Positions 5,038-29,089 are shown, counted from the stretch's first letter. The stretch: DNA of 64,000 nucleotides from an uncultured Actinomycetes bacterium (GCA_963725665.1 CAVRZA010000001.1:128001-192000); one strand, 5' to 3'. Notes: generated by a model from the sequence alone, not told the origin. Numbers and translations are program-made.

Positions 5038-5087
5038 CGTCGTCGTGCGTGTCTGTGCACCCTGTAGCCAATAGTCGGGAGGTTGAC

Positions 5088-11675: not shown

Positions 11676-13203
11676 TCGAGGGGTGTACTGGATGGGGGGC
11701 GACAGCCGGTGGGATCCAGCGCCGCCGATGACGCCCCTGACACGACGCCTTCGCGCGGACATTTGCATCGTCGGTGGAGGCTTCACGGGTCTCTGGTCGG
11801 CCCTGGATCTGAAGCGTCTGGCGCCCGAGGTCGAGGTGGTGGTCGTCGAGCAGCAGTTCTGCGGCTCAGGAGCGTCAGGACGAAACGGCGGCTGGGTGAA
11901 CGGCTGGGAAGACGCGCTGCCCAAGCTCACGGGACTGTTCGGACGCGACGAGGGGCTCGGCGTGCTGGAGCTTTCACGCCAGAGCCTCGGGCGCCTGAGA
12001 GAGGTCGTGGAAGAAGGAGAGATCGAATGCGACCTGGCTTTTGGAGGAGGCCTCGTCGTGGCGGCTTCGGAGGCGCAGCTGCGGGAGCTCGAGGGGACGA
12101 TCACCTCGTTGGCGGCCGCCGGAAAGGATGATCTGATCCAGCCGCTGTCCAAAGAGGAAGCTGTGTCGATGTCGGGCGTGCAGCGGGCTGTGGGTGGGTT
12201 CGTGCTCAAGAACGCCGGGAGCGTGCAACCGGCCCTCCTTGCGCTGGGATTGCGCCGTCTCGTCATCGAGGCCGGCGTGAAGGTCTTCGAGGCCACTCCC
12301 ATGGTGGACCTGCGACGGGGGCTGCCGGCCGTCGTCGAGACCCCGGCAGGTTCGGTCGTGGCTGACAAGGTCATCCTCGCCTGCGGGTCGTGGCTGGCGC
12401 GCGTAGCGGAACTGCGCCGCACGCTGTTTCTGATCCCCGCACACATCGTGGCCACGGAACCCTCGGCGCAGCGCCTCGACGAGATCGGCTGGCTGCGCGG
12501 CAGGCCGTTTGCCGACGCGCGCACGGCGGTTCACTACGGACAGCGGACGGCCGACGATCGAATGGTTTTCGGTCGAGGGGGTGGCCGGTTGGGGTTTGCC
12601 GGGCGCATCATCCCGAGGCACTATCACGACCCGCATGAGACGGCGGAGATCGTCGACGATCTCCGCCGTCTCATGCCGACGATGGCAGCTGCGCAGATCG
12701 AGTGGGCCTGGGGCGGCCCCGTCGACCGCAGTCAGCACGGCATGCCATGGGTGGGGTCTCTGGGGCGACAGCGCAACATCCACTACGGTGTGGGGTACTG
12801 CGGCAACGGCGTCGCCTCGGCGCCGGTCATCGGCCGCACGCTGGCATCGTTGACCTTGGGCCTCGACGACGAGTACTCGAGATCCCCTCTCGTCTCCGAC
12901 CCGCCGACGTACCTGCCCGCCGAACCGGTGAGATACGTGGGCGCTCGAGCGGTCCGTAGCGCCGTGAACCGTTGCGAGGACAAGGAGGACGCAGGTCTCA
13001 AGCCGGACCCCGTCTCCGGCCTGCTGCGGCGAGCCCTGACCCTCTCGATGCCGAAGGGGGTTCAGGTGCTACCGCTGGCGGCACAGCTCGCGGCATCGAA
13101 GGGCGCGAGGGACGTCGTCGACGACGAGCTCGCGGATGGGGTGAGCGCCGAGGGGGCTCGCAGCGGATCCGACGAGTCACCGAGCAGCGAGGGGTCGAGC
13201 TAA
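11671..13203 (+). CDS. FAD-dependent oxidoreductase (DAO / PuuB-like amine oxidase family)
   Basis: ADICIVGGGFTGLWSA, GSGASGRNGGW, GYCGNGVA. Confidence 0.9.
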   Translation: MNRGVYWMGGDSRWDPAPPMTPLTRRLRADICIVGGGFTGLWSALDLKRLAPEVEVVVVEQQFCGSGASGRNGGWVNGWEDALPKLTGLFGRDEGLGVLELSRQSLGRLREVVEEGEIECDLAFGGGLVVAASEAQLRELEGTITSLAAAGKDDLIQPLSKEEAVSMSGVQRAVGGFVLKNAGSVQPALLALGLRRLVIEAGVKVFEATPMVDLRRGLPAVVETPAGSVVADKVILACGSWLARVAELRRTLFLIPAHIVATEPSAQRLDEIGWLRGRPFADARTAVHYGQRTADDRMVFGRGGGRLGFAGRIIPRHYHDPHETAEIVDDLRRLMPTMAAAQIEWAWGGPVDRSQHGMPWVGSLGRQRNIHYGVGYCGNGVASAPVIGRTLASLTLGLDDEYSRSPLVSDPPTYLPAEPVRYVGARAVRSAVNRCEDKEDAGLKPDPVSGLLRRALTLSMPKGVQVLPLAAQLAASKGARDVVDDELADGVSAEGARSGSDESPSSEGSS

Positions 13204-13216
13204 CCAGGGGGTGGAG

Positions 13217-14668
13217 ATGGCCGTCAAGGTCGAGTGGACGACAGCCGAGCAGCGCGCGCTGATCTGCGAGCAGGCGCTCGGGTTGCTTGAGCGCACGGGC
13301 ATGCGCTTCGGACCCGGGCGGGCGCTCGACGTGCTGGCGGGGTCCGGGGCGCAGGTGGACGTGGAGTCGGGCGTGGCACGGATCACGCCCGATCTCGTCG
13401 AGCGCGCTCTTTCAGCGCTGCCCGAGGTGGTCGTGCTCGGTGGCCGGACGCCCGAAGACGACTGCGTCCTTGACGGCGCGATCCACTTCCTCGACTCCGG
13501 CACCCCGACGCGCACGGTCGACTTCGAGACCGGAGTCTACAGGGCGACGACGGCCGACGACTTGCGCAAAGCGACGATCCTTCTCGAGGCGATGCCCTCG
13601 GTCGACATCATGTGGCCCATCGTGGCGGCCACCGACGTTCCAGGTGAACGGCGCATCCTCACCGAGATCGCGGTCACCCTGACGCAGACGCGCAAGCACG
13701 TGCAGCACGAGCTGGAGGCCATGTGGCAGGTCGAGCCGATCTTGCACATGATGGAGGTCTGCGGGGGCGACCTGAAGGAGCAGCGGTCGCGCCCACGCTT
13801 CAGCCTCGTCTGCTGCACGGCCTCGCCGCTCCAGGCTCACGGACCCATGCTGGACGCCTGCATGGCGATGGCCGACCGGGGGGTCCCGATCGCCGTGCTC
13901 TCGATGCCGGTGTCGGGCGGAACGGCCCCCGTGACGGTCGCGGGCGCCGTCACCATGAACATCGCCGAGTTCCTCGGCGTCGCCACGGCGATCGAGCTCG
14001 CCTGCCCCGGGGCGCCACTCATCCTTGGAGCCGCCCCAGGCACGCTCGACATGAGGGCCACGACGTTCTCCTTCGGCGCCCTCGAGGGCGCCCAGATGAC
14101 GGCCATCGGCGTCGAGGTCGGCCACCACCTCGGCGTGCCGGTGATCGGTCCCGCCGTGGCCACCGACGCGAAACACGCCGGCATCCAGGCAGGCTTCGAG
14201 AAGGCCCTCAGGGGCCTCGTCGTGGCCTCGAGCGGGGCTGACCTGATGACGGGGGGGATTGGCCTGCTCGCGGGCGCCGGCATCCTGTCGCTGCCCCAGA
14301 TCGTGATCGACGACGAGATTGCGCAGATGATCAAGCGCATCCTGGGCGAGGTCGAGATCTCGCCCGAGACGATCATGGCCGACATGATCGAGCGGGTCGG
14401 CTTCAGCGGCGACTACCTGCGCGAGAAGGAAACAAGGAGGCGGGTGCGCGCCGGAGAGCACTTCATGCCCACGATCGCCTCCCGGCTCTCCTACGAGATG
14501 TGGGAGGCCAGCGGGCGTCACGAGTACGACGTCGCCTGCGAGAAGGTGCGGCAGCTCCTAGCCGAGGAGGAGACACGCGAGCCGCTGCTGTCGCACGACC
14601 AGATGCGTGAGCTGGACAAAGTGATCGCATCCGCCGCGTCGCTCGCTTGTCAGCACGGAACCAAGTGA
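13217..14668 (+). CDS. mttB: MttB-family corrinoid methyltransferase, non-pyrrolysine
   Basis: GGTAPVTVAGAV...AEFLG...PGAPLILG, TDAKHAGIQAGFEKA, QIVIDDEI. Confidence 0.92.
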   Translation: MAVKVEWTTAEQRALICEQALGLLERTGMRFGPGRALDVLAGSGAQVDVESGVARITPDLVERALSALPEVVVLGGRTPEDDCVLDGAIHFLDSGTPTRTVDFETGVYRATTADDLRKATILLEAMPSVDIMWPIVAATDVPGERRILTEIAVTLTQTRKHVQHELEAMWQVEPILHMMEVCGGDLKEQRSRPRFSLVCCTASPLQAHGPMLDACMAMADRGVPIAVLSMPVSGGTAPVTVAGAVTMNIAEFLGVATAIELACPGAPLILGAAPGTLDMRATTFSFGALEGAQMTAIGVEVGHHLGVPVIGPAVATDAKHAGIQAGFEKALRGLVVASSGADLMTGGIGLLAGAGILSLPQIVIDDEIAQMIKRILGEVEISPETIMADMIERVGFSGDYLREKETRRRVRAGEHFMPTIASRLSYEMWEASGRHEYDVACEKVRQLLAEEETREPLLSHDQMRELDKVIASAASLACQHGTK

Positions 14669-14772
14669 ACGTGTCACATCCACCGACCGCTGGGGTTGAC
14701 AAGACGCCGCGGCGCCTGAGACAGGCGATGGGAAACTGAATGTGAATCAGGCCGATCAACGGAGGTTGACCT

Positions 14773-16227
14773 ATGCGCGCACGCGTCGAGTGGCTCAGCG
14801 GTCCGGAATGCAGCTGCATTATTGACGAGGCCCTCGGGGTCCTTGAGCAGACCGGCATGCGGCTTGGTGCCTGCCAAGCGCTCAAAGAGCTTGAGACGAC
14901 GGGAGCACAGGTCGATCGGCAAACGGGCGTCGCACGTCTGCCGCGTGATCTCGTGGAAAGCACACTGGCCCACCTCCCGCGCCGCGTCCTTCTGGCGGGG
15001 GCCACTCCGGCCGACGACTGCCTGCTGGACGGCGCGATTCACTTCGTGCCCTCCGGCGCTCCTACCATGACACTCGACTTCGAGACGGGGGAGTACCGGC
15101 CCAGCACACTCGAGGACGTGCGGCGTTCGACTATCGTCGCCGACGCCATGCCCGCAGTCGATATTCTCTGGTCGCTCGTCAGTGCGACCGATCTCCCCGA
15201 GGGCAGCGAGGACTTCATGGGTCTCCTCACCGAACTCGCCTGGAGCAACAAACACGTGCAGGATGGAGTAACGCAGCCTTGGCAGGTGGAGCCCATGCTT
15301 GCCGTGCTGGAGACCCTTTGCGGGGGCCTCGAGGCCTTTCGCGCTCGTCCGCGACTCAGCTTCATCTGTTGTACCACATCCCCGCTGGGGATCGACGGTT
15401 CGCTTCTCGATGCCACCATCGGTGTCGCCCGCCACGGCGCACCCATCCTCATCTACCCGATGCCAATTGCCGGTGCCACCTCTCCGGTGACCGTGGCCGG
15501 CACGGTGGTCATGAACGTGGCCGAGTTCCTCGGCATCGCCACCATCATCGAGCTGGCCGCTCCGGGGGCGCCACTGATCATGGGCGCCGGCACGAGCGTC
15601 CTCGACATGAAGGCAACGACCTTCTCGTTCGGCGCCCTCGAAACGGCACTTATGTGCGTCGCCTGCGTCGAGGTCGCGCACCACCTCGGCGTGCCCGTGC
15701 TTGCTCCAGGACTGGCGAGCGATGCCAAGTATGGGGGCATCCAGGCTGGGTACGAGAAGGCACTCAAGGGGCTCGCGGTCGCGTCGGCTGGCGCGGACTT
15801 GATCACCGGAGGCATCGGGCTGCTCTCGGGCGCCGGCATCATGAGCTTGCCGCAGATTGTCATCGACGCCGAGATCGCCGTCATGATCCGTCGCCTGCTC
15901 GGCGAGACCGAGATCTCACCTGAGACAATGATGGCCGACGCCATCGCACGAGTGGGCTTCAAAGGTGACTACCTGAAGGAGAGGGAGACGGCGCGGCGTT
16001 TGCGCTGCGGCGAGCAGTTCATGCCCGTGATTGCCACGCGGCTCTCACTAGAGGCGTGGCAAGCCGGTGGCAAAGACGAGGCCAGTGTCGCCAGCGAGCG
16101 CGTACGCGAGATCGTCGTTGCCGCCGAGGAACGAGGGCCAGTTCTGCCTCCTGACACCATGGCCCGCCTCAATAGCATCGTTGACGAGGCGGTGACAGCC
16201 ACTCGTCGGGTTCGCGGCCGAGGGTGA
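14773..16227 (+). CDS. mttB: MttB-family corrinoid methyltransferase, non-pyrrolysine (close paralog of 13217-14668)
   Basis: GATSPVTVAGTV...AEFLG, SDAKYGGIQAGYEKA; GGAGG RBS. Confidence 0.92.
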   Translation: MRARVEWLSGPECSCIIDEALGVLEQTGMRLGACQALKELETTGAQVDRQTGVARLPRDLVESTLAHLPRRVLLAGATPADDCLLDGAIHFVPSGAPTMTLDFETGEYRPSTLEDVRRSTIVADAMPAVDILWSLVSATDLPEGSEDFMGLLTELAWSNKHVQDGVTQPWQVEPMLAVLETLCGGLEAFRARPRLSFICCTTSPLGIDGSLLDATIGVARHGAPILIYPMPIAGATSPVTVAGTVVMNVAEFLGIATIIELAAPGAPLIMGAGTSVLDMKATTFSFGALETALMCVACVEVAHHLGVPVLAPGLASDAKYGGIQAGYEKALKGLAVASAGADLITGGIGLLSGAGIMSLPQIVIDAEIAVMIRRLLGETEISPETMMADAIARVGFKGDYLKERETARRLRCGEQFMPVIATRLSLEAWQAGGKDEASVASERVREIVVAAEERGPVLPPDTMARLNSIVDEAVTATRRVRGRG

Positions 16228-16360: not shown

Positions 16361-16541
16361 GCTAACCTCCGGCAAACGAACGCAATGCGACCAGGTGACG
16401 CCCAGTATCACTCCACACCACTCGATGCCGGTTCCCCACGCTCGTGACCGCACTTCATGACACTCAGCGGCACCTACTAGCACGATACTCGACGCCTTTG
16501 CACGGCGGAGGTCAGGGGTTCGACTCCCCTGCGGTCCACCA
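16361..16541 (+). mobile_element. att-like site 1: element arm plus 3' half of tRNA-Ala(TGC) at 16493-16541
   Basis: cgcc-TTTGCAC-ggcgg anticodon arm, T-arm agggg-TTCGACT-cccct, acceptor strand gcggtcc-A-CCA with U70. The 5' half of the tRNA is absent. Upstream ~130 bp is homologous to 28116-28247. Confidence 0.85.
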
Positions 16542-16702
16542 CCTCGTTTACGCCCGTTTGCAGGCATTCTTACATGCTCGCAGAATGCCCCTCGACCCCC
16601 CAGAACCCCCTCGTGCAGACTTCCGGCAAACGAACGGACCAGGACCAGGAAGTCCCGCAGACCGAGTACTCCATTCTGGGGTTGATGAGTTCGAGTGCGA
16701 GG

Positions 16703-18034
16703 TCACCCACGGGGAGCGGAACGTGTCGTGGCCCTCGCACTGAGCAGTCGGGGGTGGGGTACAACCGCCTTCCCGCCCAGGAAGACGCCTGTGACCGCAT
16801 CGGGAGAGAGGAAGCACGAGAGGTCGCCTGGGTCGGTGTCGAGCATGATCGCGTCAAAGATGCAGCCAGGCGCGATACGACCCTGGTTGTGGTCCACGCC
16901 GCACAGCTGGGCACCGCGCAAGGTCGCTGCCAGTAGCGCCTCTTCGACTGATAGGCCCGCTTGGTGAAGGTAGGCGATCTCAGCGAGGTTCGTACCGTGG
17001 TCCTCCGCGTTGGCGAAATCGCTACCCAGAGCAATCGGGACGCCGACGTCGTGCGCGAGTTGCACGCATTGTCCGAGACGGGGAGCAACGTCAGCGACCC
17101 CCTCACGGACCGCGGGGGGGAATGATTCTGGCTGCGCCTGCACCATCTCAACAATCCTGTGGTAGGTAACGAGTGAAGGAACCAAGCAGATGTTGTCGGT
17201 GGCCATGCAGGCTGCCTGGCGCTCGTTGAGGTGGATACCGTGCTCGATCGAACGCACCCCGGCTTCGAGCGCGACGTCGATTCCAGCGCTTCCTACCGCG
17301 TGCGCCATCACCCCACGGTTTCGCTTGGCTGCCTCGCGCACGGCAACGGCAACCTCTTCGACGCTCAGCTGTGCTTCACTTGACGCCTGCGCCCCTGCGA
17401 ATACGCCGCCGCTTGTGCACACCTTGATCCAGTCCGCCCCGGCACGCAGAACCTCGCGCACGGCGCGGCGCATCTCGTCCTCGCCGTCGACGATGAAGGG
17501 TGGACGCCCCGGGGCGGCGGGCAGGAAGTCCTCGACCGAGATTGGCATCCCTGGACCGACCAGGAAGCCGTCGGCGTGGCCTCCGGTCTGGCTGAGCATG
17601 ACGATCGAGATCTCGAGATGAGGTCCCTCGATTAGGCCGTCCTCGACCCCTGCGCGCAGGCCCGCATCGGCACCCCCCGCATCGCGGACGTGGGTAACGC
17701 CGGCTGCTAGAGTGGCGCGAAGATTGCGGGCTGCTTGGAGAGCGCGCAGCGATAGCGGCGTCTGCAGGTTCTCAAGGGTGTTCGTCGACGACATCCCAAT
17801 GTGGACGTGACAGTCGAAAACGCCCGGCATCAGCCACAGGCCGCCTCCATCGACCTGGACAGCTCCTTCGGGAGCCTTGCTCTTGGGTGCGACGGCGACG
17901 ATGATGCCGTCTTCGACGACCACATCTAGTGGGTCGCTGAAGCTCCCGCTCGCGTCGAGGGCGCGCACCCCGCGCAAGACAAGTGCCTGCTCTTTGGGAG
18001 GGCCGCTGCCGCTCCTTGTGTTCGTTCCTGTCAC
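16703..18034 (-). CDS. Metal-dependent amidohydrolase (prolidase/Xaa-Pro dipeptidase-like)
   Basis: LMPGVFDCHVH, GADWIKVCTSGG, VMAHAVG, SIEHG, IALGSD. Confidence 0.9.
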   Translation of the reverse strand: MTGTNTRSGSGPPKEQALVLRGVRALDASGSFSDPLDVVVEDGIIVAVAPKSKAPEGAVQVDGGGLWLMPGVFDCHVHIGMSSTNTLENLQTPLSLRALQAARNLRATLAAGVTHVRDAGGADAGLRAGVEDGLIEGPHLEISIVMLSQTGGHADGFLVGPGMPISVEDFLPAAPGRPPFIVDGEDEMRRAVREVLRAGADWIKVCTSGGVFAGAQASSEAQLSVEEVAVAVREAAKRNRGVMAHAVGSAGIDVALEAGVRSIEHGIHLNERQAACMATDNICLVPSLVTYHRIVEMVQAQPESFPPAVREGVADVAPRLGQCVQLAHDVGVPIALGSDFANAEDHGTNLAEIAYLHQAGLSVEEALLAATLRGAQLCGVDHNQGRIAPGCIFDAIMLDTDPGDLSCFLSPDAVTGVFLGGKAVVPHPRLLSARATTRSAPRG

Positions 18035-18264
18035 GGCGAACTCGGGTAGGGATTGTCAGTCACCAGCCTGGCTCCCACCAGTCACTGCTCGCGCCAGTCC
18101 TCAGTGACCGCTCTCAGCGTCGCGAATCATACGCCTGGACACCCTGCCAACAGTTTCACAGGACTCTTCTGCTTGTCACCGTGATGGCCAAAGTCGTCGT
18201 TCCCAGGCGGTGTTCTGGCACCTTCCTCAGCCGCGCCTCGCGCACTGGTGCTGGCGACGCTGCC

Positions 18265-19278
18265 TCAGTCTGCGCGGACGGTGGCGTGGGTACGCTCGCT
18301 GCGGAAGTGGCAGGCGGCTAGATGCGCCTGGGTGTGGTAGGCAGCCGGCGACGTCTCCGTCCCGGAGCCGTCCACCGGCAGAAGCCGCGGCTCATCCACG
18401 GCGCACACCGCCTCCGCCCGCGGGCAGCGCGTGTGAAAACGGCATCCGGAGGGGACGTCGATCGCGCTCGGCGGGTCGCCCTTGAGCGGCGCCTCCGGCG
18501 TACGTCCGACTTGACTGAGGCGTGGCGCCGACTTGAGCAGCACCTGGGTGTACGGCGCCCGCGGATCGCCGAAGAGAGCGTCCCTCGGCGCCGCTTCGGC
18601 GATCCGCCCCAGGTACATCACCGTCACTCTGTCGGAGAGATGGCGCACCACCGCCAGGTTGTGCGAGATGAGCAGGATGGCGAGGCCCAGCCGCTCGCGC
18701 AGCTCGGCGAACAGAGCCAGGATCGTAGCCTGCACCGAGACGTCCAGAGCGGACACCGGCTCATCGGCGACCAGCATGCGCGGCTCCACGGCCAGCGCCC
18801 GTGCGATGGCGATACGCTGACGCTGCCCCCCCGAAAACTGGTGCGGGTAGCCGTCCAAGGCCCGAGGCGGCAGACCGACGTATGCCAACAGCTCCCGGCA
18901 GCGTCCCTCGACCTGATCGCGCGGCACAAGGTGGTGTACGCGCAGCAGCTCCGTCAGCACCTGACGGACGGGCAGGCGAGGGTTCAAGGAGGTGGCGGGG
19001 TCTTGGTACACCATCTGGATCGAACGGCGCACCGCGGCCCGACGCTGCCGGCCGACAACGTTGCCGTCGAGCACGACCTCACCCTGTGTCGCCGCGAGCT
19101 CACCCGTGATGCAGCGCCCGATCGTGGTCTTGCCGCAGCCGGATTCGCCGACCAGGCCGACGATCTCGGCCGGCGCCAGGCGGAGGGAAACGCCGTCGAC
19201 GGCGCGGACCACGCCGTAACCCTTGACCGGGAAATGGACGTGAAGGTCGCGGACCTCGATCAGGGGCTCAGGGGACAC
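18265..19278 (-). CDS. ABC ATPase, OppF-like
   Basis: GESGCGKTT, FSGGQRQR, DEPVSALD, SGCRFHTRCP. Confidence 0.93.
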   Translation of the reverse strand: MSPEPLIEVRDLHVHFPVKGYGVVRAVDGVSLRLAPAEIVGLVGESGCGKTTIGRCITGELAATQGEVVLDGNVVGRQRRAAVRRSIQMVYQDPATSLNPRLPVRQVLTELLRVHHLVPRDQVEGRCRELLAYVGLPPRALDGYPHQFSGGQRQRIAIARALAVEPRMLVADEPVSALDVSVQATILALFAELRERLGLAILLISHNLAVVRHLSDRVTVMYLGRIAEAAPRDALFGDPRAPYTQVLLKSAPRLSQVGRTPEAPLKGDPPSAIDVPSGCRFHTRCPRAEAVCAVDEPRLLPVDGSGTETSPAAYHTQAHLAACHFRSERTHATVRAD

Positions 19279-20266
19279 CTGCCTCCAGTCCCTCCTTCAT
19301 GAGCTCGTCCACATACAGACAGGCGCTGGCTCGACCCGGCCCCGCCGGAGCCAGCGCCACGTCGCTGGTCTCGCACGGCGACCGCGCCAGGAAGCAACGC
19401 GGGTGGAACGCGCACCCCGTGGGCCGGTTCAGCGGATCGGGCAGGCTGCCGGGGATGGGGACGGGCGCGCTCACCTCGATGTCGAGATCCACCGCCGAGC
19501 GCAGCAACCCGATGGTGTACGGGTGCAGCGGCCGCGCGAGCAGGTCGGCCGCGCGGCCCGTCTCCACCAGGCGGCCGGCGTACATCACACAGACGTCTTC
19601 GCAGAGCTCGCCGACGAGCGCCAGCTCGTGCGTGACGAACACGATGGACAGGCCCATGCTCTCCTGAAGGTCGACGAGCAGGCGCAGGATCTGCGCCTGG
19701 ATGGTCACGTCGAGAGCGGTCGTCGGCTCGTCGCAGAGCAGCACCTTGGGCTCCGACGAGAGCGCGATGGCGATCATCACCCGCTGGCGGGTGCCGCCGG
19801 AGAGCTCGTGCGGGTAGCTGCGCATGCGGCGCTCGGCGTCGGGGATGCCGACCAGACGGAGCAGCTCGAGAGCCCTCGCATCGGCCTGGGCGCGCGACAT
19901 CCCCAGCACGCGCCGAGGCGCCTCGGCGATCTGGTAACCGCACGTCATCACCGGATCGAGCGACGTGCCGGGGTCCTGGAAGATCATCCCCAGCCGGCCG
20001 CGACGGGCGGCGGGCACGCCCTTGCCGCGGAGCGGCAACTCCACGCCCGCCGCCGTCACGCGGCCGGCCGTGGCGGCGGCGCGATCCGGCAGCAGCCCCA
20101 TGGTCGCGCGCAAGGTCAGGCTCTTGCCACACCCGGATTCGCCGACAAGCCCGACGGATTTGCCGCGCTCGACCGCGAGCGAGACGCCGTCGACGGCGCG
20201 GAACCGCTCCCGGTCGCGGGTGACCTCGACCACCAGCCCGTCGACCTGCAGTGCCGGATCGCTCAT
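19268..20266 (-). CDS. ABC ATPase, OppD-like
   Basis: Start MSDPALQV overlaps the upstream stop; [32 protein letters not shown]. Confidence 0.93.
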
Positions 20267-21159
20267 TCGGGACGCAGCACGTCGGCCAATCCGTCGCCGA
20301 GCAGGGAGAGGCCGATGCCGGTGATGACGACGCACAGACCGGGGATGGTCGACAGCCACCACCGCGTGGTCATGAACGGCTGGCCGTCGAAGATCATCGA
20401 TCCCCAGTCGGGGTTCGGCGCCTGGATGCCCAGGCCCAGGTACCCCAGGGTGACCACGGCGAGGATGACGAAGACGATGTCCGATGTCGCGTAGACGATG
20501 GCCTGGGTGATCGTGTTGGGCAGGATGTGCCGGCTGAGGATGCGAGGATCCGACAGGCCCCCTCCCTTGGCCGCCGATGACCAGCCAAGGCGGCCGACGA
20601 CGAGTGTGGAGCTGCGCACCGTGCGCGCGTAGGTCACCCAATCGGTCAGCGCGAAGGCGATGAAGATGCCGCGGATGCCTTTGCCTACCACGAACACCAG
20701 GGTGATGATGAGTACGTAGTAGGGGAAGGCCATGACCACGTCGATGATGCGGCTGAGCACCGTGTCGGGCCAGCCCTTGTAGTAGCCGGCCAGCGTACCT
20801 ATGGTCGTCCCGATAGTGAACGGGATGAGCACCACCAGGAAGCCCGTGGCGAGGTCGAAACGGCCTGCCCACAGCAGGCGCGACCAGACATCCCGCCCGA
20901 GCTGGTCAGTCCCCAGCCAGTGGGCCCACGAAGGGGATGCCAGGATGTCGGTGAGATTCTGCTGCAGCGGCGGGTAGCGGTCGATCCACGGTGCGAGAGC
21001 GGCGAGAAGGATGAGGACGCCGAGGATGGTCGCGCCGGCGATGAGCGAGCGGTTGCGCGCCGCTTTGCGCAACAGAGGGTGCGAGCGGACGACGAGACCC
21101 TCAAGCGCGACGGCCTGGTCGCCACCGGCGCTCGGGCTACTCACGGGACTAGCGCTCAC
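20263..21159 (-). CDS. ABC permease, OppC-like
   Basis: HWLGTDQLGRDVWSRL, HILPN, LGLGIQAPNPDWG. Confidence 0.93.
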   Translation of the reverse strand: MSASPVSSPSAGGDQAVALEGLVVRSHPLLRKAARNRSLIAGATILGVLILLAALAPWIDRYPPLQQNLTDILASPSWAHWLGTDQLGRDVWSRLLWAGRFDLATGFLVVLIPFTIGTTIGTLAGYYKGWPDTVLSRIIDVVMAFPYYVLIITLVFVVGKGIRGIFIAFALTDWVTYARTVRSSTLVVGRLGWSSAAKGGGLSDPRILSRHILPNTITQAIVYATSDIVFVILAVVTLGYLGLGIQAPNPDWGSMIFDGQPFMTTRWWLSTIPGLCVVITGIGLSLLGDGLADVLRPE

Positions 21160-22085
21160 GACAGCCGGATTCGCGGGTCGAGTCTCGCCGCCGTGAGATC
21201 GGTGACGAGATTGATGATGACCACCGACAGCGCGAGGACGAAGGTCACGCCCTGCACGACGGGGAAGTCACGGTTGCTGATCGAGGTGAGCATCAGGGTC
21301 CCGAGACCGTTGAGCTGGAACACCCTTTCGACGATCACCGTCGCGCCGATGAGGAAGGCCACATTGATCCCCAAGAGGGTGAGCGTCGGAATGATGGCGT
21401 TGCGCGCGACGTGGACGAGCAGCACGCGGTGCTCACGCAGTCCCTTTGCCCGCACGGTGGCGATGTAGTCGGCCTGGAGGACCTCGAGCATGCCGACGCG
21501 CAGGCTGCGCACCAGGAGCGGCACGATCGCCAGGGCCGACGTGAGGGCCGGCAGGATGAGCGCCTGGATGTGCTCGGGGACCGTGTCGCCCCAACCGCCC
21601 ACCGGGAACCAGCCCAGGTTCACGGCGAAGATCAGGATCAGGACCAGACCGACCCAGAACGACGGCATGCCGAGCCCGACTATGGGGACGGCGCGGATGA
21701 TGTGGTCTTCGGGTCGGTCTTTGCGGATGGCCGCGATGGTCGCCAGGGGTACGGTGATCAGGACGGCGAAGAGCGTGGCGAGGGCGACCAGCGCCATCGT
21801 CACGCCTATGCGGCTGGCGATGAGCGTGCGGGTGGGCACTTCATAGAAGAGTGAGGCGCCGGTGTCGCCGTGTGCCAGCTGCTTGAGGAAGAGCCAGAAC
21901 TGGATCCAGATCGGCTCGTCCAGCCCCCAGCGCGCGCGCAGTGCGGCGATCTGTTCCGGCGTGCCGCGGTTGCCGAGCAACGTCATCGCCGGATCGCCCG
22001 GTATCAGGCGCAGCAGGAAGAAGGTGACGATGGTGATGCCGAGGACCACCGGGATGGCCTGAGCCAGGCGGCGGACGATGTACAT
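21156..22085 (-). CDS. ABC permease, OppB-like
   Basis: LIPGDPA, MLEVLQADYIATVRAKGL, RDFPVVQG. Confidence 0.93.
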   Translation of the reverse strand: MYIVRRLAQAIPVVLGITIVTFFLLRLIPGDPAMTLLGNRGTPEQIAALRARWGLDEPIWIQFWLFLKQLAHGDTGASLFYEVPTRTLIASRIGVTMALVALATLFAVLITVPLATIAAIRKDRPEDHIIRAVPIVGLGMPSFWVGLVLILIFAVNLGWFPVGGWGDTVPEHIQALILPALTSALAIVPLLVRSLRVGMLEVLQADYIATVRAKGLREHRVLLVHVARNAIIPTLTLLGINVAFLIGATVIVERVFQLNGLGTLMLTSISNRDFPVVQGVTFVLALSVVIINLVTDLTAARLDPRIRLS

Positions 22086-22123
22086 CCGCCGCCCTCAGGC
22101 CATCCCGGTGTCAGTGGAACGCG

Positions 22124-23746
22124 TCACGCCAGCCAGACACTCTCCAGCATGTAGGCGCCAGCCGGGTTGACCGCGAAGCCGTTCACCGCGTTGCCCCAGG
22201 CGTAGATCGACGGCGGATAGGTCAGCGCCACATACGGTGCGTCCTGCGCCACCATGGCCTGGATCTGCTTGTACATCTCGCCGCGTTTCGCAGAGTCCAT
22301 CTCCCCCGCCGCCTCGCGCACCAGCTTCACGACGTCGGGGTTGTTGTAGCCGGTCCAGAACGAGTCAGAGCCGCCGTTCTCCGCATCGCACTGGAACGAG
22401 GCCATCTCGTCGGGGTCACTGATGTCGTTGATGGCGTTGTTGATCATCTGGTCGTAGTTGAACTTGCGGAAGTCGTCCTCGTAGGCCGCGTGGTCCTTCT
22501 GGTCGATGGTCGCGTTGATGCCGATCTTCTTCATGCCGTCCTGCAGGATCTGCGCCGTCTGCGCCCACACCTGGTTGCCCGTCGGGATGAGGATCTTGGT
22601 GTCAAAGCCGTTGGGATACCCGGACTTGGCGAGCTCTGCCTTGGCGGCCTCGATGTCGTAGGAGAGCAGCGGTGTGTTGGCATCGTAGTACTGCAGGCTG
22701 GGCGGGAAGAAGGATCCCCCTGCCGGTGCAGTGTTGAAGGTGGTCGCCGAGGCGATCGCCTTGGTATCGATGGTGTAGGCGATGGCGCGACGGACGTTGC
22801 GGTCGGCGTAGTACTTGACCTTCTCGTTGAAGAACACAAGGTCGACCGACCACGCCGGAAAGATGCCTACCGCGACCTTGCTGTCACCCTTCAGGGACTG
22901 CACCTGCGCCGGCGGCACGAGGTCGATGACCTGCACCCCCCCGCTCTGCACCTGCAACACGCGCTGGTTGTCGTCGAGGATGACGCGGAACACGACCTCG
23001 TCGAGGTACGGCTTGCCCGCCTGCCAGTAGTTGGTGTTGCGTTCAAGCGTGATCTCGGCTCCCTGCTGCGCCCAGGACTTGAGCTTGAACGGTCCCGTGG
23101 CGACGGGATTGGCGAAGAACTCCTTCTCCGAGAGGCCGTTGAGATCCTTGGGCAGGATCGCGTCAGAGTAGATCGAGAGGTCGGAGAGCAGCGGTGCCCA
23201 AGGCTGCGAGAGCAGGATCTTGACCGTGGACTGGTCGACCGACGTCACATCCTTGATGGCGAAGTTGAGGAAGCTCATCGACCCCGTCTTGCTCGTCCGC
23301 GCGCGGTTCAGCGACCACGCCACGTCGTCGGCCGTCATGGGCTTCCCGTCGCTGAAGGTGACATCCGGCTTGAGGGCGAGCGTGTAGGTCATGCCGTCCG
23401 CGCTGACCTCATGAGAGTCGACCAACCACGGCTGCAACACCCCCTTGGCGTCTGTGACGTACAGCGTCTCGTAGATCTTGTCGAGCGTGTACACGTTGCC
23501 GCTGCTGACCGCGACGTTGTGGGGATCCAGACCGACGGCCTGGACGGTGGGCTGGACGGCGCGACCGATGATCAGCTGGCCACCCGTCTTGGGCGAGCCG
23601 CTGGCGCTGGGGCTGGCCGACGACGATGTGGATGTGCCCCCGCAGGCCGCGGCCAGTCGCCCGAGAGCCAGCAGTCCGACCCCCGCGGCTCCGACCTTGA
23701 GTACGTCCCTGCGCGTGTACTCTTCCTTACTCCAAGACATGACCAT
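22124..23746 (-). CDS. ABC substrate-binding Tat-lipoprotein, family 5
   Basis: TRRDVLK twin-arginine motif, LAAAC lipobox, FSDGKPMTADDVAWS. Confidence 0.93.
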   Translation of the reverse strand: MVMSWSKEEYTRRDVLKVGAAGVGLLALGRLAAACGGTSTSSSASPSASGSPKTGGQLIIGRAVQPTVQAVGLDPHNVAVSSGNVYTLDKIYETLYVTDAKGVLQPWLVDSHEVSADGMTYTLALKPDVTFSDGKPMTADDVAWSLNRARTSKTGSMSFLNFAIKDVTSVDQSTVKILLSQPWAPLLSDLSIYSDAILPKDLNGLSEKEFFANPVATGPFKLKSWAQQGAEITLERNTNYWQAGKPYLDEVVFRVILDDNQRVLQVQSGGVQVIDLVPPAQVQSLKGDSKVAVGIFPAWSVDLVFFNEKVKYYADRNVRRAIAYTIDTKAIASATTFNTAPAGGSFFPPSLQYYDANTPLLSYDIEAAKAELAKSGYPNGFDTKILIPTGNQVWAQTAQILQDGMKKIGINATIDQKDHAAYEDDFRKFNYDQMINNAINDISDPDEMASFQCDAENGGSDSFWTGYNNPDVVKLVREAAGEMDSAKRGEMYKQIQAMVAQDAPYVALTYPPSIYAWGNAVNGFAVNPAGAYMLESVWLA

Positions 23747-23884
23747 CCCCTAGCGTCGCTTGTGACTCCCCAATTAAGAACTCATCGAGCACGGTCCGCT
23801 CACCGGTCTCGCCACGAGGTCTACCATCCGCGCGTGGCAAGGTCAATGGGCTTGCCCCCACCCCGTCTGTCGGCCGCACGCTAT

Positions 23885-24021
23885 CCCTAATGCATCAATG
23901 AGTCAGCATTGAGAGCGCAAAATAGACAGATTGGTATCTTACTAATGGCTTGTGCGAACGTGCAAGGGCCATACAATGGTGTCATTAGGCATTGACGGAG
24001 ATTTCACAGAACCTTTAGATT
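23885..24021. promoter_or_regulatory. AT-rich divergent promoter region with AATG/CATT inverted repeats (candidate GntR operators)
   Basis: TCAATG-N6-CATTGA at 23895-23912; CAATG-N4-CATTAG at 23974-23988; TTGACG(23992)-18 bp-TAGATT(24016). Confidence 0.5.
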
Positions 24022-24061
24022 ATGAACGGATCGACCCAACAGAATCGGGAACGGAGGACTT

Positions 24062-24856
24062 GTGATCCGAGACGCTGAGTCGTCTGTCAGCAGCGTTTCA
24101 AACGGCGGCGATTCATCATCGCGCCGTGCCTATGAGGTTCTGAGGAGAGCGTTCGTACTGTGCGAGGTCATGCCGGGGAGCCAAGTGACGGAGTCATTTC
24201 TGGCGGAGCGATATGGTCTGACTCGTGCGGCGGTGCGTGCGGCCCTCGGGAGACTGCGCCAACAGCACTGGATCGAAGCGAGCCCTAGAAAGGGTTATGT
24301 CGTTCGCCCGCTGACGCTCAAGGACATCCGGGATCTGTACGCAGTCCGTTCACTCTTAGAACCGGCGGCTGCGGAGATGGCGGCGCGCAATGCCAGTGAG
24401 TCCCAATTGGCCGAGATTGGAGAGCTGGCACGTGTGAACGCCGATGACGGTGCTGGCTATGAGGCCATCAGAGACTTCCTGGAGGTGAACACTCGATTCC
24501 ACGTGGCGGTTGCGACCGCTTCTGGGAACGAACGGATTGCGCAGATGCTCGAAGAAGTGCTCGTCGAGATGGAGAGGATGTTCCATTTCGGTCTGGCGTC
24601 CGCGAGTCGAAGCTTCGAGATGTCGCATGAGCACGGCAAGCTCGTAGATGCTCTCATGGCGGGGGATTCAGCTGCAGCCAGCGCAGCCGTGCGGGAGCAG
24701 CTAAGGACGTCGGAGAAGATGGTTGTCGACGTGGTGTTGTTGCAGAATCCCATGCTACAAAACGTGAACCTTGCGCAGGAGGCCCACATGAAGGGCTACG
24801 CCCCTGCTCGCATCGACACGGAGTACAGCCGCGAAACGGACAAGGATCGGCTGTGA
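24062..24856 (+). CDS. GntR family regulator (FCD domain)
   Basis: AYEVLRRA...PGSQVTESFLAERYGLTRAAVRAAL; NTRFHVAVATASGN; EHGKLVDAL; GGAGG RBS. Confidence 0.92.
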   Translation: MIRDAESSVSSVSNGGDSSSRRAYEVLRRAFVLCEVMPGSQVTESFLAERYGLTRAAVRAALGRLRQQHWIEASPRKGYVVRPLTLKDIRDLYAVRSLLEPAAAEMAARNASESQLAEIGELARVNADDGAGYEAIRDFLEVNTRFHVAVATASGNERIAQMLEEVLVEMERMFHFGLASASRSFEMSHEHGKLVDALMAGDSAAASAAVREQLRTSEKMVVDVVLLQNPMLQNVNLAQEAHMKGYAPARIDTEYSRETDKDRL

Positions 24857-25123
24857 CCCGGAATCGCTTCCACCCAGTCCGGCGGCCCTGGAGCGCTCAT
24901 GTGAGACAGTGCCACGGGGTCCGACCTACGAATGAGGGCATCGATCGGAGCTACACAGGCATGACCGCTTGACCCAATACGCTCGTCCCGACCATCGGTA
25001 TTCAGGTCGGGCACGGCTCTCCTCATGCTGCGGGGCCGCCGCCCAATGCGCAGCCGGAAGGGAGCTGGGGATAGGAGGCGAGCAGCAGCGAGCGAGTACT
25101 CTGCGAGACCGTCAGACCTGAAG

Positions 25124-26569
25124 GTGCATGATCGGCGCCCGGCGTACGAGGAGTTCCTCGACCGCTTTCCCGAGTATGCGGAGACGGCCAAGCTCGACGA
25201 ACTACGCATCACCGAATACGAACGCTTGGACCGCCTGGGTCACGTCTACCTCGACTACACGGGCGGAGGGCTGTTCGCGCAACGGCAGCTCCGCGAGCAT
25301 TGCCAGCTCCTCGGAGCGCATGTGCTCGGCAACCCGCATTCGCATAACCCAGCGTCGCGTGCCGCCACGGAGCTCGTCGAGGAGGCGCGCGAGGACGTTC
25401 ACCGCTTCTTCAACGCCGACCCGCGCGAGTACGAAGTCATCTTCGTATCCAATGCCAGCGGAGCACTGAAGCTTGTGGGCGAGGCGTACCCGTTCGACCG
25501 GCAGGCTGGCCTGCTACTGACCTTCGATAACCACAACTCAGTCAACGGCATGCGTGAGTTCGCCCACACGAGGGGTGCTACCACCACATACGTCCCAGTG
25601 TGCAACCCCGACTTGCGTGTCGACGGAGAGCTTCTGCAGCAGGCGCTGCGCGAGTCGCGGTCGCCCGATCCCACATCCCCTCCAACAGGGGGCCTTTTCG
25701 CCTACCCAGCGCAGTCGAACTTCAGCGGGGTGCAACACCCCCTGTCCTGGGTGAGGGACGCGCGCGCACACGGCTGGGACGTGATCCTCGACTGCGCTGC
25801 ATACGTGCCCACGAATCGCCTCGACATGCGGCGTGTGGGAGCCGACTTCGTGCCAATCTCGTTCTACAAGATGTTCGGCTACCCGACGGGTATCGGCGCC
25901 TTGATAGCCCGGCGCAAAGCGCTGTCCCGGCTGCGGCGACCGTGGTTCGCTGGCGGCACCATCACGATCGCCTCTGTGCAGAACGAGGATTGGCACCGTC
26001 TGGCGCCGGCACCTGCTGGCTTCGAGGACGGCACCCTCGATTACCTTGGCTTGCCAGCGGTGAGCATGGGGCTGCGCTACCTGGAGTCGATCGGGATGGA
26101 TACTATCCACACGCGGGTCTCGTGTCTGACCGCTTGGCTGATCGACGAGTTGTTGCGGCTGCGGCACAGCAACGGGCATCCGCTGGTACGCATCTTCGGT
26201 CCGCGGGACATGGAGGGGCGCGGCGCCACGATCGCTCTGCACCTGCTCGATCCCCGTGGCCGTCCGTACGACGTTTACGACATCGAGACAGCCGCAGGAC
26301 GCGAGCTCATCTCCATCCGCACCGGGTGCTTCTGTAACCCGGGTGACGGGGAGGTCGCCCATGAGATCACGAGTGGTGATATGGAGCCCTGCTTCCGCGA
26401 CAGCACGGCGATTGTCTCCCTGACCCAATGTCAACGGTCAATCGAGGACGCCACCGGCAAGGTGCCAAACACTATTCGTATATCGCTCGGCCTGGTCTCG
26501 AACTTCGAAGACGTCTGCCGCTTCGTGGCATTCACGGGGCGTTATCGCGACAGGCTTGAGGGTCGATGA
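25124..26569 (+). CDS. Class V PLP enzyme resembling the NifS-like domain of molybdenum cofactor sulfurase
   Basis: YLDYTGGG, GNPHS, FAYPAQSNFSG, ISFYKMFGYPTGIGAL, IRTGCFCNPG. Start uncertain (GTG 25124 chosen). Confidence 0.85.
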   Translation: MHDRRPAYEEFLDRFPEYAETAKLDELRITEYERLDRLGHVYLDYTGGGLFAQRQLREHCQLLGAHVLGNPHSHNPASRAATELVEEAREDVHRFFNADPREYEVIFVSNASGALKLVGEAYPFDRQAGLLLTFDNHNSVNGMREFAHTRGATTTYVPVCNPDLRVDGELLQQALRESRSPDPTSPPTGGLFAYPAQSNFSGVQHPLSWVRDARAHGWDVILDCAAYVPTNRLDMRRVGADFVPISFYKMFGYPTGIGALIARRKALSRLRRPWFAGGTITIASVQNEDWHRLAPAPAGFEDGTLDYLGLPAVSMGLRYLESIGMDTIHTRVSCLTAWLIDELLRLRHSNGHPLVRIFGPRDMEGRGATIALHLLDPRGRPYDVYDIETAAGRELISIRTGCFCNPGDGEVAHEITSGDMEPCFRDSTAIVSLTQCQRSIEDATGKVPNTIRISLGLVSNFEDVCRFVAFTGRYRDRLEGR

Positions 26570-26581
26570 GACCTCTCCGCG

Positions 26582-26751
26582 CGTCGGAGCCCAAGGTGGT
26601 GCTCTGCGAGAGCCGAGACCGCTCTCGACGTGACGATCCAGGCTCAGATTCAGCGCCTGCTCGTCGACCTTCAGGAGGAGGTGGGTCTGTTTCCATCGTG
26701 TTCGTCACGCACGAACTGACGTTCGTCGGCGAGCTTCTGCGAAGACGTCTG
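26582..26751 (+). pseudogene. Frameshifted, inverted copy of the Walker B-to-H-loop segment of the ATPase at 19590-19757
   Basis: cgtcggagcccaaggtg(g/c)tgctctgcga...ccgctctcgacgtgac...cgcctgctcgtcgaccttcaggag...tccatcgtgttcgtcacgcacga...ctgcgaagacgtctg matches the reverse complement of 19590-19757 with several indels. Confidence 0.85.
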
Positions 26752-26784
26752 AGCGGCATCCACTCGGAAAGCAGGTGTAGGCAG

Positions 26785-27954
26785 ATGGTACGCTCAATTG
26801 AGTTCATCATGACGGCAGGACCCGTCGAGTTGTCTGACAGGGTCCGCTCCGCTCTCGGTAGCCAGCTCCTGTTCGACTACTCGCAGCCGTTTCTCGATCT
26901 CTTCCGAGACACCGAGCAGAAGTTCAAGCAGTTCCTTAAGACCGGCAACGACATCGTCATGATGCAGGGAGAAGCGCTGCTCGGGCTTGAGGCGATATCT
27001 CTCTGCGGTCTCGACGAGGGCGATGTCGTCATCAACGTCGAGAGCGGCCACTACGGCGAGGGCAACCGCTACTTCATAGAGAAGTACGGCGGCAAGGTAG
27101 TCCCGGTCGAGACGCCGTGGAACACGGTCGCGGAGCCCGAGCAGCTCGAGGCTGTGCTCAAAGCTCACCCGGAGGCGAAGATCCTCTGGCTCGTCCACTG
27201 TGAGACGCCCTGCGGGACGCAAGCCGACCTGGAGTCTCTGGCCAAGCTGGGCAAGCAGTACGGCAAGCTGGTGTTCGTCGACTCGGTGAGCTGTGCCGGT
27301 AGCTCCCCTGTGGAGGTCGATGCCTGGGGCATCGATATTGTCTCGGTGGGGTCTCAGAAGGTACTGGGGGCGCCCCCCGGCCTGAGCGCAATGTCTATCT
27401 CGGAGGCCGCCTGGGACGTCTTCCGCGGCGTCAAGCAGCCGAATCGCTATTCGTACTTCAGCATCCTTGACTGGAAGGAGCTCTGGCTCGAGAAAGGGAT
27501 ATGGCCCTACACCGCGTCGACCACGGAAGTGGCGGCGCTGAACGCAGCGGTGAGCGAGTACCTCGAAGTCGGGCACGAGGAGCATTTCCGCAGGTACGCG
27601 GAGATTGGCCGTGCCGCTCGGGCTGGGGTCGAGGCGATGGGCCTGAAGCTGTGGCCTGATAATGCACAGCACGCCTGCAACGTCGCCACTGCGATCTCTG
27701 TGCCCGACGGTATCGACGACGAGCATCTGCGGCGGCGCATGATTGAGAAGTTCGGCGTATTGATCTCCGGCAGCCTCTTCAACACGCCTATCTACGGCAA
27801 GTTGGTGCGCTTGGGCCACATGGGCAGAACGTGCAGTCCCGCATATGGCAGCGTCGCGCTCACCGCGCTCGGCCACTGCCTCAACGAGATGGGCTGTCGC
27901 GTGGACGTAGGCGCCGGAATCGACGCCTTCCTCGCTCAACTCGATCCGGTGTGA
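26785..27954 (+). CDS. Class V aminotransferase, pyridoxamine-pyruvate / alanine-glyoxylate transaminase-like
   Basis: MTAGPV, LFDYSQPF, GEALLGLEA, HCETPCGT, GSQKVLGAPPGL, SILDWKELW, RLGHMG; closely parallels remembered PPAT motifs. Confidence 0.85.
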   Translation: MVRSIEFIMTAGPVELSDRVRSALGSQLLFDYSQPFLDLFRDTEQKFKQFLKTGNDIVMMQGEALLGLEAISLCGLDEGDVVINVESGHYGEGNRYFIEKYGGKVVPVETPWNTVAEPEQLEAVLKAHPEAKILWLVHCETPCGTQADLESLAKLGKQYGKLVFVDSVSCAGSSPVEVDAWGIDIVSVGSQKVLGAPPGLSAMSISEAAWDVFRGVKQPNRYSYFSILDWKELWLEKGIWPYTASTTEVAALNAAVSEYLEVGHEEHFRRYAEIGRAARAGVEAMGLKLWPDNAQHACNVATAISVPDGIDDEHLRRRMIEKFGVLISGSLFNTPIYGKLVRLGHMGRTCSPAYGSVALTALGHCLNEMGCRVDVGAGIDAFLAQLDPV

Positions 27955-28115
27955 GGCTAGGCGTCTACCGAGACCGCCGCGAACGAAATGCATCGAGTTC
28001 GAAGAATGGAGGGAGAATCTCGGGCACGTCCGGAGTGTGACAGTAGCCGTGCCGTCGGGCACGATCGACGTGCTGCGGAGTATCTCCTCGCTCGTGCGCC
28101 AAGCCGTTCACTCGG

Positions 28116-28296
28116 GCTAACGTCCGGCTAACGAACTGCTCGATTCAACCTGACTCTCGCTGGCACTCAGTGTCAGACCACGCCTGCTCTTCACGCTCGT
28201 GGGCGCACTCAGTGGCACTCACCGGCACGCACTAGCACGATACTCGACGCCTTTGCACGGCGGAGGCCAGGGATTCGACTCCCCTGCGGTACACCA
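28116..28296 (+). mobile_element. att-like site 2: element arm plus 3' half of tRNA-Ala(TGC) at 28248-28296
   Basis: actagcacgatactcgacgcctttgcacggcggagg is identical to 16476-16511; the remainder of the core differs at 3 positions. Confidence 0.85.
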
Positions 28297-28407
28297 CTCA
28301 TTTGCAGGGAACTCGTGCTCCGTACGGCGCAAAGAACCGTCCTGGACACCCCCTCCTACAACCCGATGACAAACAGACTGAGTGCGGCTCGGTGCGCCTC
28401 GGTGGGT

Positions 28408-28447
28408 ACGGCGGAGGTCAGACGTTCGATTGTCCTGCCGTCGATCC
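28408..28447 (+). repeat. Third, more decayed copy of the tRNA-Ala 3' core
   Basis: acggcggaggtcagacgttcgattgtcctgccgtcgatcc vs acggcggaggtcaggggttcgactcccctgcggtccacca. Confidence 0.65.
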
Positions 28448-28559
28448 CACATGTGCCCCGGGGATGGGGCTGCGTGCCCGGTCGACGGGTTCTGAGCTGC
28501 CTGCAAGACCGCGGTTCTGGCACGTCCACGACCGCGATGACCTCTCGCGCATAAAGGCG

Positions 28560-28696
28560 TAGGCTGGGTCAGAGATCCCGCAGTCCTCTGGCTTCGGTGA
28601 TCCCGCGCAGTTGGCGACAGCGTGACCGGCCTCGTGATAGGCGATGGCCATCAGGCGCAGCGCAGGACACTCGCTGTCGTCGTCCGTCGCGCTCAT
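28560..28696 (-). pseudogene. Remnant with HEAGH (M41-like zincin) motif
   Basis: MSATDDDSECPALRLMAIAYHEAGHAVA; ATG overlaps the integrase-remnant stop, then the sequence degenerates. Left boundary approximate. Confidence 0.4.
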
Positions 28697-28800
28697 CCCA
28701 CGACCGCCAACTGCCCCACAGCCAGTCGAAGCCCGGCGTCGATCTTCTGCGCGGCCTCCTCCTGCATGCCCGGCACCACATGGCCGTACGTGCCTAAGTC
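28693..28800 (-). pseudogene. C-terminal remnant of a tyrosine integrase
   Basis: Manual translation DLGTYGHVVPGMQEEAAQKIDAGLRLAVGQLAVVG* matches the TYxHVxPGMQxEAA tail of phage/ICE integrases containing the catalytic Tyr; about 400 bp from the att core. Confidence 0.75.
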
Positions 28801-28805
28801 CGCGA

Positions 28806-28866
28806 TGTAAAGCATGCTTGACACCACGGCCTCTCGTTGCTAGAGTCATGTCAAGCCAACTTTACA
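28806..28866 (+). promoter_or_regulatory. Sigma70-type promoter flanked by two palindromic operators
   Basis: TTGACA(28818)-17 bp-TAGAGT(28841); operators TGTAAAG-N4-CTTGACA (28806-28823) and TGTCAAG-N4-CTTTACA (28849-28866). Confidence 0.8.
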
Positions 28867-28888
28867 CGAGGAAGGCAGAGGAGCTGTG

Positions 28889-29089
28889 ATGGTCAATCGG
28901 GTCAAGGATCTGCGCGTGGCGGCGGGTCTGCGCCAGGAGGATCTCGCCGAGAGCACCGGGGTCAGCCGCCAGACGATCATCTCCATCGAGCGCGGCCGCT
29001 ACAACCCGTCGCTCGAGCTCGCCTGGAAGCTGTCCAGGATGCTGGGCGTGACCATCGAGGAGCTCTTCTGTTTCACGGAGGGAGACTGA
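28889..29089 (+). CDS. XRE-family HTH regulator
   Basis: NRVKDLR...LRQEDLAESTGVSRQTIISIERGRYNPSLELAWKL...IEELF. Confidence 0.93.
   Translation: MVNRVKDLRVAAGLRQEDLAESTGVSRQTIISIERGRYNPSLELAWKLSRMLGVTIEELFCFTEGD

Follow-up and report, generated by a model that had tools for sequence, protein, structure and literature searches.

Cis-mobilizable elements (CIMEs) have lost their integration and transfer genes and kept the attachment (att) sites attL and attR, and tandem accretion with mostly decayed partners has been described for integrative elements that are conjugative (ICEs) or mobilizable (IMEs), according to the sections of PMC5704250 devoted to them. In Dehalococcoides, multiple tandem islands with rdhA cargo lie downstream of ssrA and are bounded by repeats of its 3′ end; the sections of PMC3146451 on these islands report 15 without an integration module, proposed there to be cis-mobilizable or fixed, and describe the integration module as adjoining attL on the reverse strand. 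Here we report a locus with comparable anatomy in a 64-kb window, that is, the whole stretch of DNA analyzed (64,000 nucleotides from an uncultured Actinomycetes bacterium, GCA_963725665.1 CAVRZA010000001.1:128001-192000; positions are counted from its first letter). The locus contains three partial copies of a tRNA-Ala(UGC)-like sequence (att1, att2, and att3), an interval of 11.4 kb with catabolic and transport genes between the first two, and the stump of an integrase gene next to the third. With a probability of roughly 0.65, we read it as a fossil tandem array of att sites at tRNA-Ala(UGC), whose element backbones have been lost and whose interval is a rearranged mosaic typical of the lineage.

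The locus resembles the Dehalococcoides islands, as those sections present them, in its direct repeats of the 3′ end of a small RNA, its tandem arrangement, and its catabolic content. The two differ in target, repeat, and enzyme: the Dehalococcoides islands have a tmRNA target, a 20-bp repeat, and the serine recombinase DsiB (as given in the same sections of PMC3146451), whereas the window has a 48-bp tRNA-Ala-like repeat with an anticodon hairpin, a 134-nt arm, and a relic of a tyrosine recombinase whose relatives carry PF00589. In the ICESt1/ICESt3 group of Streptococcus thermophilus, cis-mobilization by a neighboring functional ICE was shown experimentally (PMC5704250, in its treatment of this group); in contrast, the window holds no functional neighbor and no transfer genes, its att copies are eroded, and it gives no evidence of movement. 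Our family scans covered 46 of the 57 called ORFs (those at 0.2-53 kb, the other 11 lying at 53-64 kb), and no recombinase other than the stump was found among these 46, so no adjacent or cognate element that could mobilize the locus was found there. The locus has the anatomical features of a CIME and apparently not the functional ones. Actinomycete elements of the pSAM2 type, which belong to the same host phylum as the window, encode a tyrosine integrase, and their att identity runs from the anticodon loop to the tRNA 3′ end. Compared with these elements, the window retains only att copies and an integrase stump, whereas rep, FtsK-like tra, xis, and kor were not found in the scans; the actinomycete ICE (AICE) module of int, xis, rep, and FtsK-like tra was likewise not found, and neither Pfam (22 ORFs) nor NCBIfam (46 ORFs) detected an integrase, Xis, Rep, Tra, or transposase family. 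Since CIMEs, accretion, and the Dehalococcoides ssrA islands have already been described, the idea put forward in an earlier model-generated reading of this sequence (hereafter the original prediction), namely integrase-less catabolic units accumulating at one tRNA, belongs to an existing category. The locus is an ordinary fossil of an already described type in a little-studied lineage; tandem accretion and integrase-less, att-flanked catabolic units being known, it opens no new question.

The features that make up the array are the following, all on the plus strand:

16361..16494, plus strand: P-type arm of att1, non-tRNA sequence common to the att2 arm at 28116-28249 (93/134 identical), with TCCGGCAAACGAAC at its distal end.
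16495..16542, plus strand: att1 core, spanning the anticodon stem through CCA, every stem intact; the best-preserved copy.
16614..16649, plus strand: the arm-start motif repeated on the other side of the att1 core, to its right (78% over 36 nt in the repeat search).
28116..28249, plus strand: P-type arm of att2, with GCACTCA at 28163, 28205, and 28215 and GCACGCA at 28225.
28250..28297, plus strand: att2 core, with 3/48 changes relative to att1, one of which breaks a T-stem pair and one of which alters the acceptor strand.
28386..28456, plus strand: att3, the most decayed copy, which keeps the last bases of the arm; its anticodon loop is enlarged by a 6-nt insertion, and its T stem is broken.

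The three same-strand tRNA-Ala(UGC)-like 3′ parts lie at 16495-16542, 28250-28297, and 28408-28456, and none is accompanied by a tRNA 5′ half, all three being of the type in which an element arm is joined to a core. On this point the repeat search, the core scan, and direct reading agree with the original prediction, which had described three direct tRNA-Ala(TGC) 3′ halves lacking a 5′ half. The repeat search returned a 147-nt direct repeat (16396-16542 and 28151-28297; 79% identity, spacing 11,755) and a 49-nt family with copies at 16502, 28257, and 28408 (82%, 100%, and 71% identity to the reference copy). When the 48-nt core was compared with both strands of the window, it matched at 16495 (48/48, itself), 28250 (45/48), and 28401 (34/48), the next best position reaching 28/48; a 25-mer (0/2 mismatches) and a 21-mer (0/1 mismatches) from the tRNA-like part matched only at the first two sites, with zero chance matches in 100 shuffles. 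The third copy agrees with the first at 32/41 positions, the best unrelated position in the window reaching 25/41. Direct repeats of the tRNA 3′ part, which bound elements of this kind, are thus present in three copies. For a fourth fragment, at 59434-59464, blastn gave E 0.06 and the core matched at 28/48; we set it aside as a T-arm-like hairpin that arose by chance. A search of plasmids with the att unit in distant mode yielded just three short tRNA-like matches. No intact tRNA or tmRNA gene was found by ARAGORN in the whole 64-kb window, including the intact target tRNA that would be expected at the proximal end of the array; this gene could be situated beyond the window, over 16 kb to the left.

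The boundaries of the repeat are sharp. At the fixed offset of 11,755, identity is 25/100 over the 100 nt that adjoin the arm on its left, 93/134 across the 134-nt arm that precedes the tRNA part (corresponding to the ~130 bp of shared upstream sequence that the original prediction had also noticed), 49/58 in the core-proximal stretch of that arm, 45/48 in the tRNA part, and 26/100 in the 100 nt to its right. Because the similarity stops at the CCA end of the tRNA, as in a site-specific crossover, we interpret the copies as att junctions rather than as a simple duplication. To the right of the three cores, homology between the flanks did not rise above that of shuffled sequences (69/500, 189/500, and 228/500).

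Read directly, 16495-16542 shows an anticodon stem of 4 bp whose 7-nt loop carries UGC in register; a variable loop of 5 nt and a perfect T arm follow, and the acceptor 3′ strand, which has U70, is completed by discriminator A and CCA. Rfam was run in truncated mode on stretches starting at the fragment; when 15.5-29.5 kb was submitted in one piece, the search was blind to internal half-tRNAs and gave chance matches only. In truncated mode, the second copy was recognized as a 5′-truncated tRNA (21.2 bits and E 0.009, covering positions 27-71 of the 71 in the model) and the third copy gave no Rfam match. We take the target gene to be tRNA-Ala(UGC), with tmRNA as a lesser possibility that is weighed below.

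The arms carry short repeated motifs. In the att2 arm, those at 28205, 28215, and 28225 are phased at 10 nt, while motifs of the GCACTCA type have a window-wide density of 0.18 per 140 nt. Additionally, the arm start, including TCCGGCAAACGAAC, recurs 72 nt right of the att1 core (local score 32, shuffle maximum 30, 0/500). The 13-mer CCGGCAAACGAAC taken alone was discarded as insignificant, with 4 matches against 1.76 expected and 9/100 shuffles reaching 4. The phased GCACTCA motifs and the arm-start motifs look like predicted arm-type protein-binding sites, and the copy at 16614-16649 is possibly a putative arm-type integrase-binding site on the P′ arm.

To the right of att3 lie the remains of a recombinase gene and the sequence that replaced most of it:

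28693..28833, minus strand: tyrosine-integrase relic of ~45 codons with the catalytic-Tyr box TYGHV, transcribed towards att3.
28797..29089, plus strand: integrase cut-off point, with a palindrome, a TTGACA-17-TAGAGT promoter, and an XRE-type helix-turn-helix gene at 28886-29089 (NCBIfam).

The stop-to-stop frame at 28693-28839 on the minus strand has 48 codons and contains TYGHVVPGMQEEAA; the relic stops 237 nt from the att3 core, and no integrase gene lies next to att1. A phmmer search of 1.84 billion representative sequences returned 38 proteins at E<=0.001, of which 14 were covered by a Pfam scan. Eight of these 14 carry PF00589, and in them the match falls at the extreme C-terminus with ~75% identity over 28 residues; the remaining six consist of three repetitive proteins with scattered noise matches and three short proteins without a family. 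By tblastn, the proteins P0017 and P0035 aligned to 28717-28827 with 61-63% identity over 41 residues, and when phages were searched in the same way with the integrase tail, 15/15 matches lay inside annotated integrase genes (E 0.06). Given that eight of the 14 phmmer relatives scanned carry PF00589 and that the match in them is C-terminal, the stump corresponds to the last ~45 codons of a tyrosine integrase, so that the tail proposed in the original prediction is real and is a minus-strand relic homologous to PF00589 C-termini. An int gene adjoining attP is the layout known from phage lambda, to which the orientation of the relic towards att3 can be likened. With anatomy of the att type and an integrase stump in the expected place and orientation, the original prediction of relics of tandem, tRNA-targeted integration is supported.

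The 5′ nine-tenths of the integrase gene have been replaced by the palindrome, the promoter, and the XRE-type regulator gene. The degenerate residues upstream of the Tyr box are reproduced in P0005 (40 aa, 88%) and P0008 (39 aa, 68%); since both reproduce the same degenerate junction, the truncation is old and common to other lineages, which points to an inherited fossil. A perfect 10-nt palindrome, AAGCATGCTT, and the near-consensus promoter lie within 28797-28846, exactly at the integrase cut-off, where the promoter scan found one promoter against 0.1 expected; together, upstream of the XRE-type gene, they could be a putative autoregulated operator. On the other side of the stump, the start codon of a 92-codon ORF (28421-28696, minus strand) overlaps the integrase stop codon as ATGA, and the frame extends as far as the att3 core. 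Within this ORF lies AYHEAGHAV, an HExxH motif resembling that of zinc proteases (Pfam M41 at just E 0.065); homologues were found neither among proteins of near length in the protein set nor in phages.

The succession of events may be pictured as follows. Related elements encoding a tyrosine integrase would have inserted at least two or three times in the 3′ end of tRNA-Ala(UGC), a gene that should sit left of the window on the plus strand. Each insertion would have left a junction made of the distal (P-type) arm of the element and a 48-bp copy of the tRNA 3′ end, and newer insertions at the tRNA-proximal site would have pushed earlier junctions rightwards. Because the att1 core is intact, att2 has three changes, and att3 is badly eroded, we infer a serial insertion in which the oldest junction is rightmost. 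The element backbones would later have been deleted, leaving the 45-codon integrase stump right of att3 as the lone remnant, and the DNA between att1 and att2 would be a reshuffled mosaic of catabolic and transport genes typical of the Thermoleophilia lineage.

The content of the interval between att1 and att2 was annotated with Pfam and NCBIfam:

16703..28115, no strand assigned: the interval as a whole, 11.4 kb.
16706-18034, minus strand: amidohydrolase.
18268-23746, minus strand: DppF, DppD, DppC, and DppB with a family-5 binding protein.
24062-24853, plus strand: GntR/FCD regulator.
25025-26566, plus strand: class-V aminotransferase.
26582..26751, plus strand: frame-broken scrap of a DppD ATPase gene, 170 nt, inverted relative to the intact DppD sequence at 19605-19758 (minus strand).
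26785-27954, plus strand: pyridoxamine-pyruvate-type transaminase, its start set from homologue comparison.

The scanned ORFs of the interval (16.7-28.0 kb) matched metabolic, transport, or regulator families only, in agreement with the lack of mobility genes that characterizes CIMEs. The composition of the interval does not deviate from that of its host: its tetranucleotide usage correlates at r = 0.94 both with its flanks (the left unit and the right flank) and with the core segment containing TypA (0.94-0.96 among all segments), and its GC content is 0.648 against 0.645-0.679 elsewhere. The DppD scrap, located between the stop of the class-V aminotransferase gene and the start of the transaminase gene, is 88-96% complementary to the intact DppD gene (repeat search) and 78-87% identical to the DppD genes of four related loci introduced below. 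Judged by its sequence, it is a scar of local rearrangement inside the interval, and it hints that the ABC operon once had a second copy, since lost. An inverted repeat with 25-nt arms at 22047-22110, between the binding-protein gene and DppB, is also present in one of these loci (L004) and is probably an intercistronic stem-loop, Rfam having given chance miRNA-like matches only.

A genome scan with the family-5 binding protein, including 10-kb flanks, retrieved 32 loci, of which four were close (L001-L004). All four come from uncultured Thermoleophilia bacteria, with binding-protein identities of 89%, 74%, 71%, and 62%, respectively, and it is on account of these relatives that the window is placed in the Thermoleophilia. 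Collinearity with them is confined to the ABC operon (window 18293-23762). In L002-L004, the class-V aminotransferase gene directly follows DppF on the same strand and the amidohydrolase gene is convergent to it, while L001 has only the amidohydrolase gene beside the operon and no class-V aminotransferase. The GntR regulator, the transaminase, MttB, and the right-flank genes were not found within 10 kb of the operon in any of the four, nor was any tRNA or att-like sequence within that distance; no tRNA occurred in any of the 32 loci, and in L001 and L002, whose flanks were the ones submitted to Pfam, ordinary genes were present without mobile-element families or an integrase. For the transaminase, many homologues at 84-92% identity were present among the matches listed (the best 120 of 161 at E<=1e-20). 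Two homologues at 87% and 88% (66% of the query), if they derive from L001 and L003, lie more than 10 kb from the operon, compared with 3 kb here. Another protein, P0076, is a transaminase paralogue, 81% identical, that is not in the window; the contig from which the window comes probably holds this second copy elsewhere. In L004, the alignment of each ABC-operon gene is broken into several segments shifted against one another, which suggests many frameshifts, from assembly errors or in a decaying operon. As the relatives share only the ABC operon and have another gene order, the interval is no conserved cassette, and its parts are typical of the lineage and about equally diverged.

These results bear on how far the interval can be regarded as a mobile unit. 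The original prediction had proposed an integrase-less unit of ~11.7 kb, and 16543-28297 is formally att-flanked and free of an integrase; the notion of a discrete cassette, on the other hand, is not supported, since only the ABC operon is collinear in the four relatives. The further proposal, that of catabolic cassettes bounded by att sites and forming a family mobilized in trans, is not supported either, in view of the lack of att within 10 kb of the operon in the four relatives (0/4), the native composition, and the age of the stump. The att units that it had proposed to look for in relatives were not found in these 10-kb flanks, and the gene order there is different. We accordingly regard it as improbable that 16543-28297 is a CIME-like catabolic cassette with working att sites, movable by an integrase elsewhere and belonging to a family at tRNA-Ala. 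Direct att copies with homologous arms do flank an integrase-less interval, the att1 core is undamaged throughout, the arms still carry conserved motifs in phase, public data contain PF00589 proteins of the full-length type whose tail is closely similar, and such units are documented in other systems, in the portions of PMC5704250 and PMC3146451 that concern them. Yet no second example was found: within 10 kb of the operon, none of the four relatives that carry it shows att, a tRNA, or this set of genes, and L001 and L002, the two that were scanned, yielded no integrase. The interval, moreover, is native in composition and contains a scar of internal rearrangement, att2 has 3/48 changes including a broken stem, the P′ arm is not shared, and the only integrase of the window is a stump that is itself inherited in other lineages. 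The stronger proposition that the interval is live, that a full-length integrase encoded elsewhere recombines att1 with att2, and that Thermoleophilia trade integrase-less units for peptide or amine catabolism at tRNA-Ala seems to us very doubtful. As for the target, the copies might be 3′ ends of the tmRNA gene ssrA, as in many ssrA-targeting islands, and Rfam indeed gives as its best clan match for att1 not a tRNA but the 3′ end of tmRNA (15.9 bits, E 2e-5, positions 326-374 of 374). tmRNA has an alanine-type acceptor stem like that of tRNA-Ala, and the alignment scores on the T arm and acceptor alone, the 20 nt upstream having low posterior probability. With att2 called a tRNA by Rfam, its anticodon stem-loop in register, and nothing in tmRNA to correspond to the hairpin, whose 7-nt loop places UGC at positions 34-36, an ssrA target is highly improbable.

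A further explanation differs from the fossil-array reading in the order of events alone: the att copies would once have been close together, and the 11.4 kb of catabolic genes would have entered later by recombination or inversion, never having been element cargo. Att2 and att3, 160 bp apart, show that near-empty units exist, and the arm-start motif 72 nt right of the att1 core could be taken for the beginning of another unit. Rearrangements are attested by the DppD scrap and by a gene order unlike that of L002-L004, and the interval has a native composition, with orthologues at 87-89% in data from the nearest relative. However, no signature of target duplication, insertion sequence, or transposase was found at 16650 or 28115, and on direct reading the motif copies at 16614 and 28116 are alike over just ~22 nt. 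We consider this course of events unlikely; the interval genes may have come as cargo or later. Several results weigh against the fossil array itself. No intact tRNA-Ala was found in the 64-kb window, so that the identity of the core with a real tRNA of this genome is presumed, and the ranking of the first copy as a tmRNA end by Rfam adds to this. Tandem related elements would predict homologous P′ arms unless these were deleted, but no homology is detectable between the sequences right of the three cores, and the scan with the 48-nt core found no right-hand att for a third unit in the 35 kb to the right. A word-indexed search for longer proteins with the integrase tail gave none at E<=0.01, Pfam gave no integrase match for the 48-aa and 143-aa ORFs, and tblastn of the tail against plasmids returned a mixture of recombinase genes, unannotated DNA, and unrelated genes at E 0.4-8; the phmmer search, which was exhaustive, then decided the matter. 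The four relatives represent different species or genera, so their context says little on recent presence or absence at the boundaries described here. Finally, inactivity is presumed: nothing in the window appears able to move the interval now.

Read as a fossil array, the scars mark a plastic, island-seeded region in an uncultured soil lineage of the Thermoleophilia. The candidate attB/attP core, together with the arm and the C-terminal signature of the matching integrase family, could help to locate intact elements or integration tools in this group.

Outside the interval, three paralogues of the MttB methyltransferase family were identified left of att1, at 3616-5034, 13211-14665, and 14773-16224. 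The region that they delimit (3616-16224) also holds a cognate corrinoid protein (5049-5735), a Dpp-type ABC system, and an FAD oxidoreductase, and all MttB scores, at 311-345 bits, are under the trimethylamine equivalog cut-off of 525. Right of the array, gene debris was observed that includes 33374-34234, 40500-41500, and 44265-44642, among it a partial papain-like peptidase, a DppD-like stretch of a second ABC system without a clean ORF, and the C-terminal third of a sugar epimerase. Across 0-45 kb, the GC content at third codon positions (GC3) is lower and patchier than on the TypA side.

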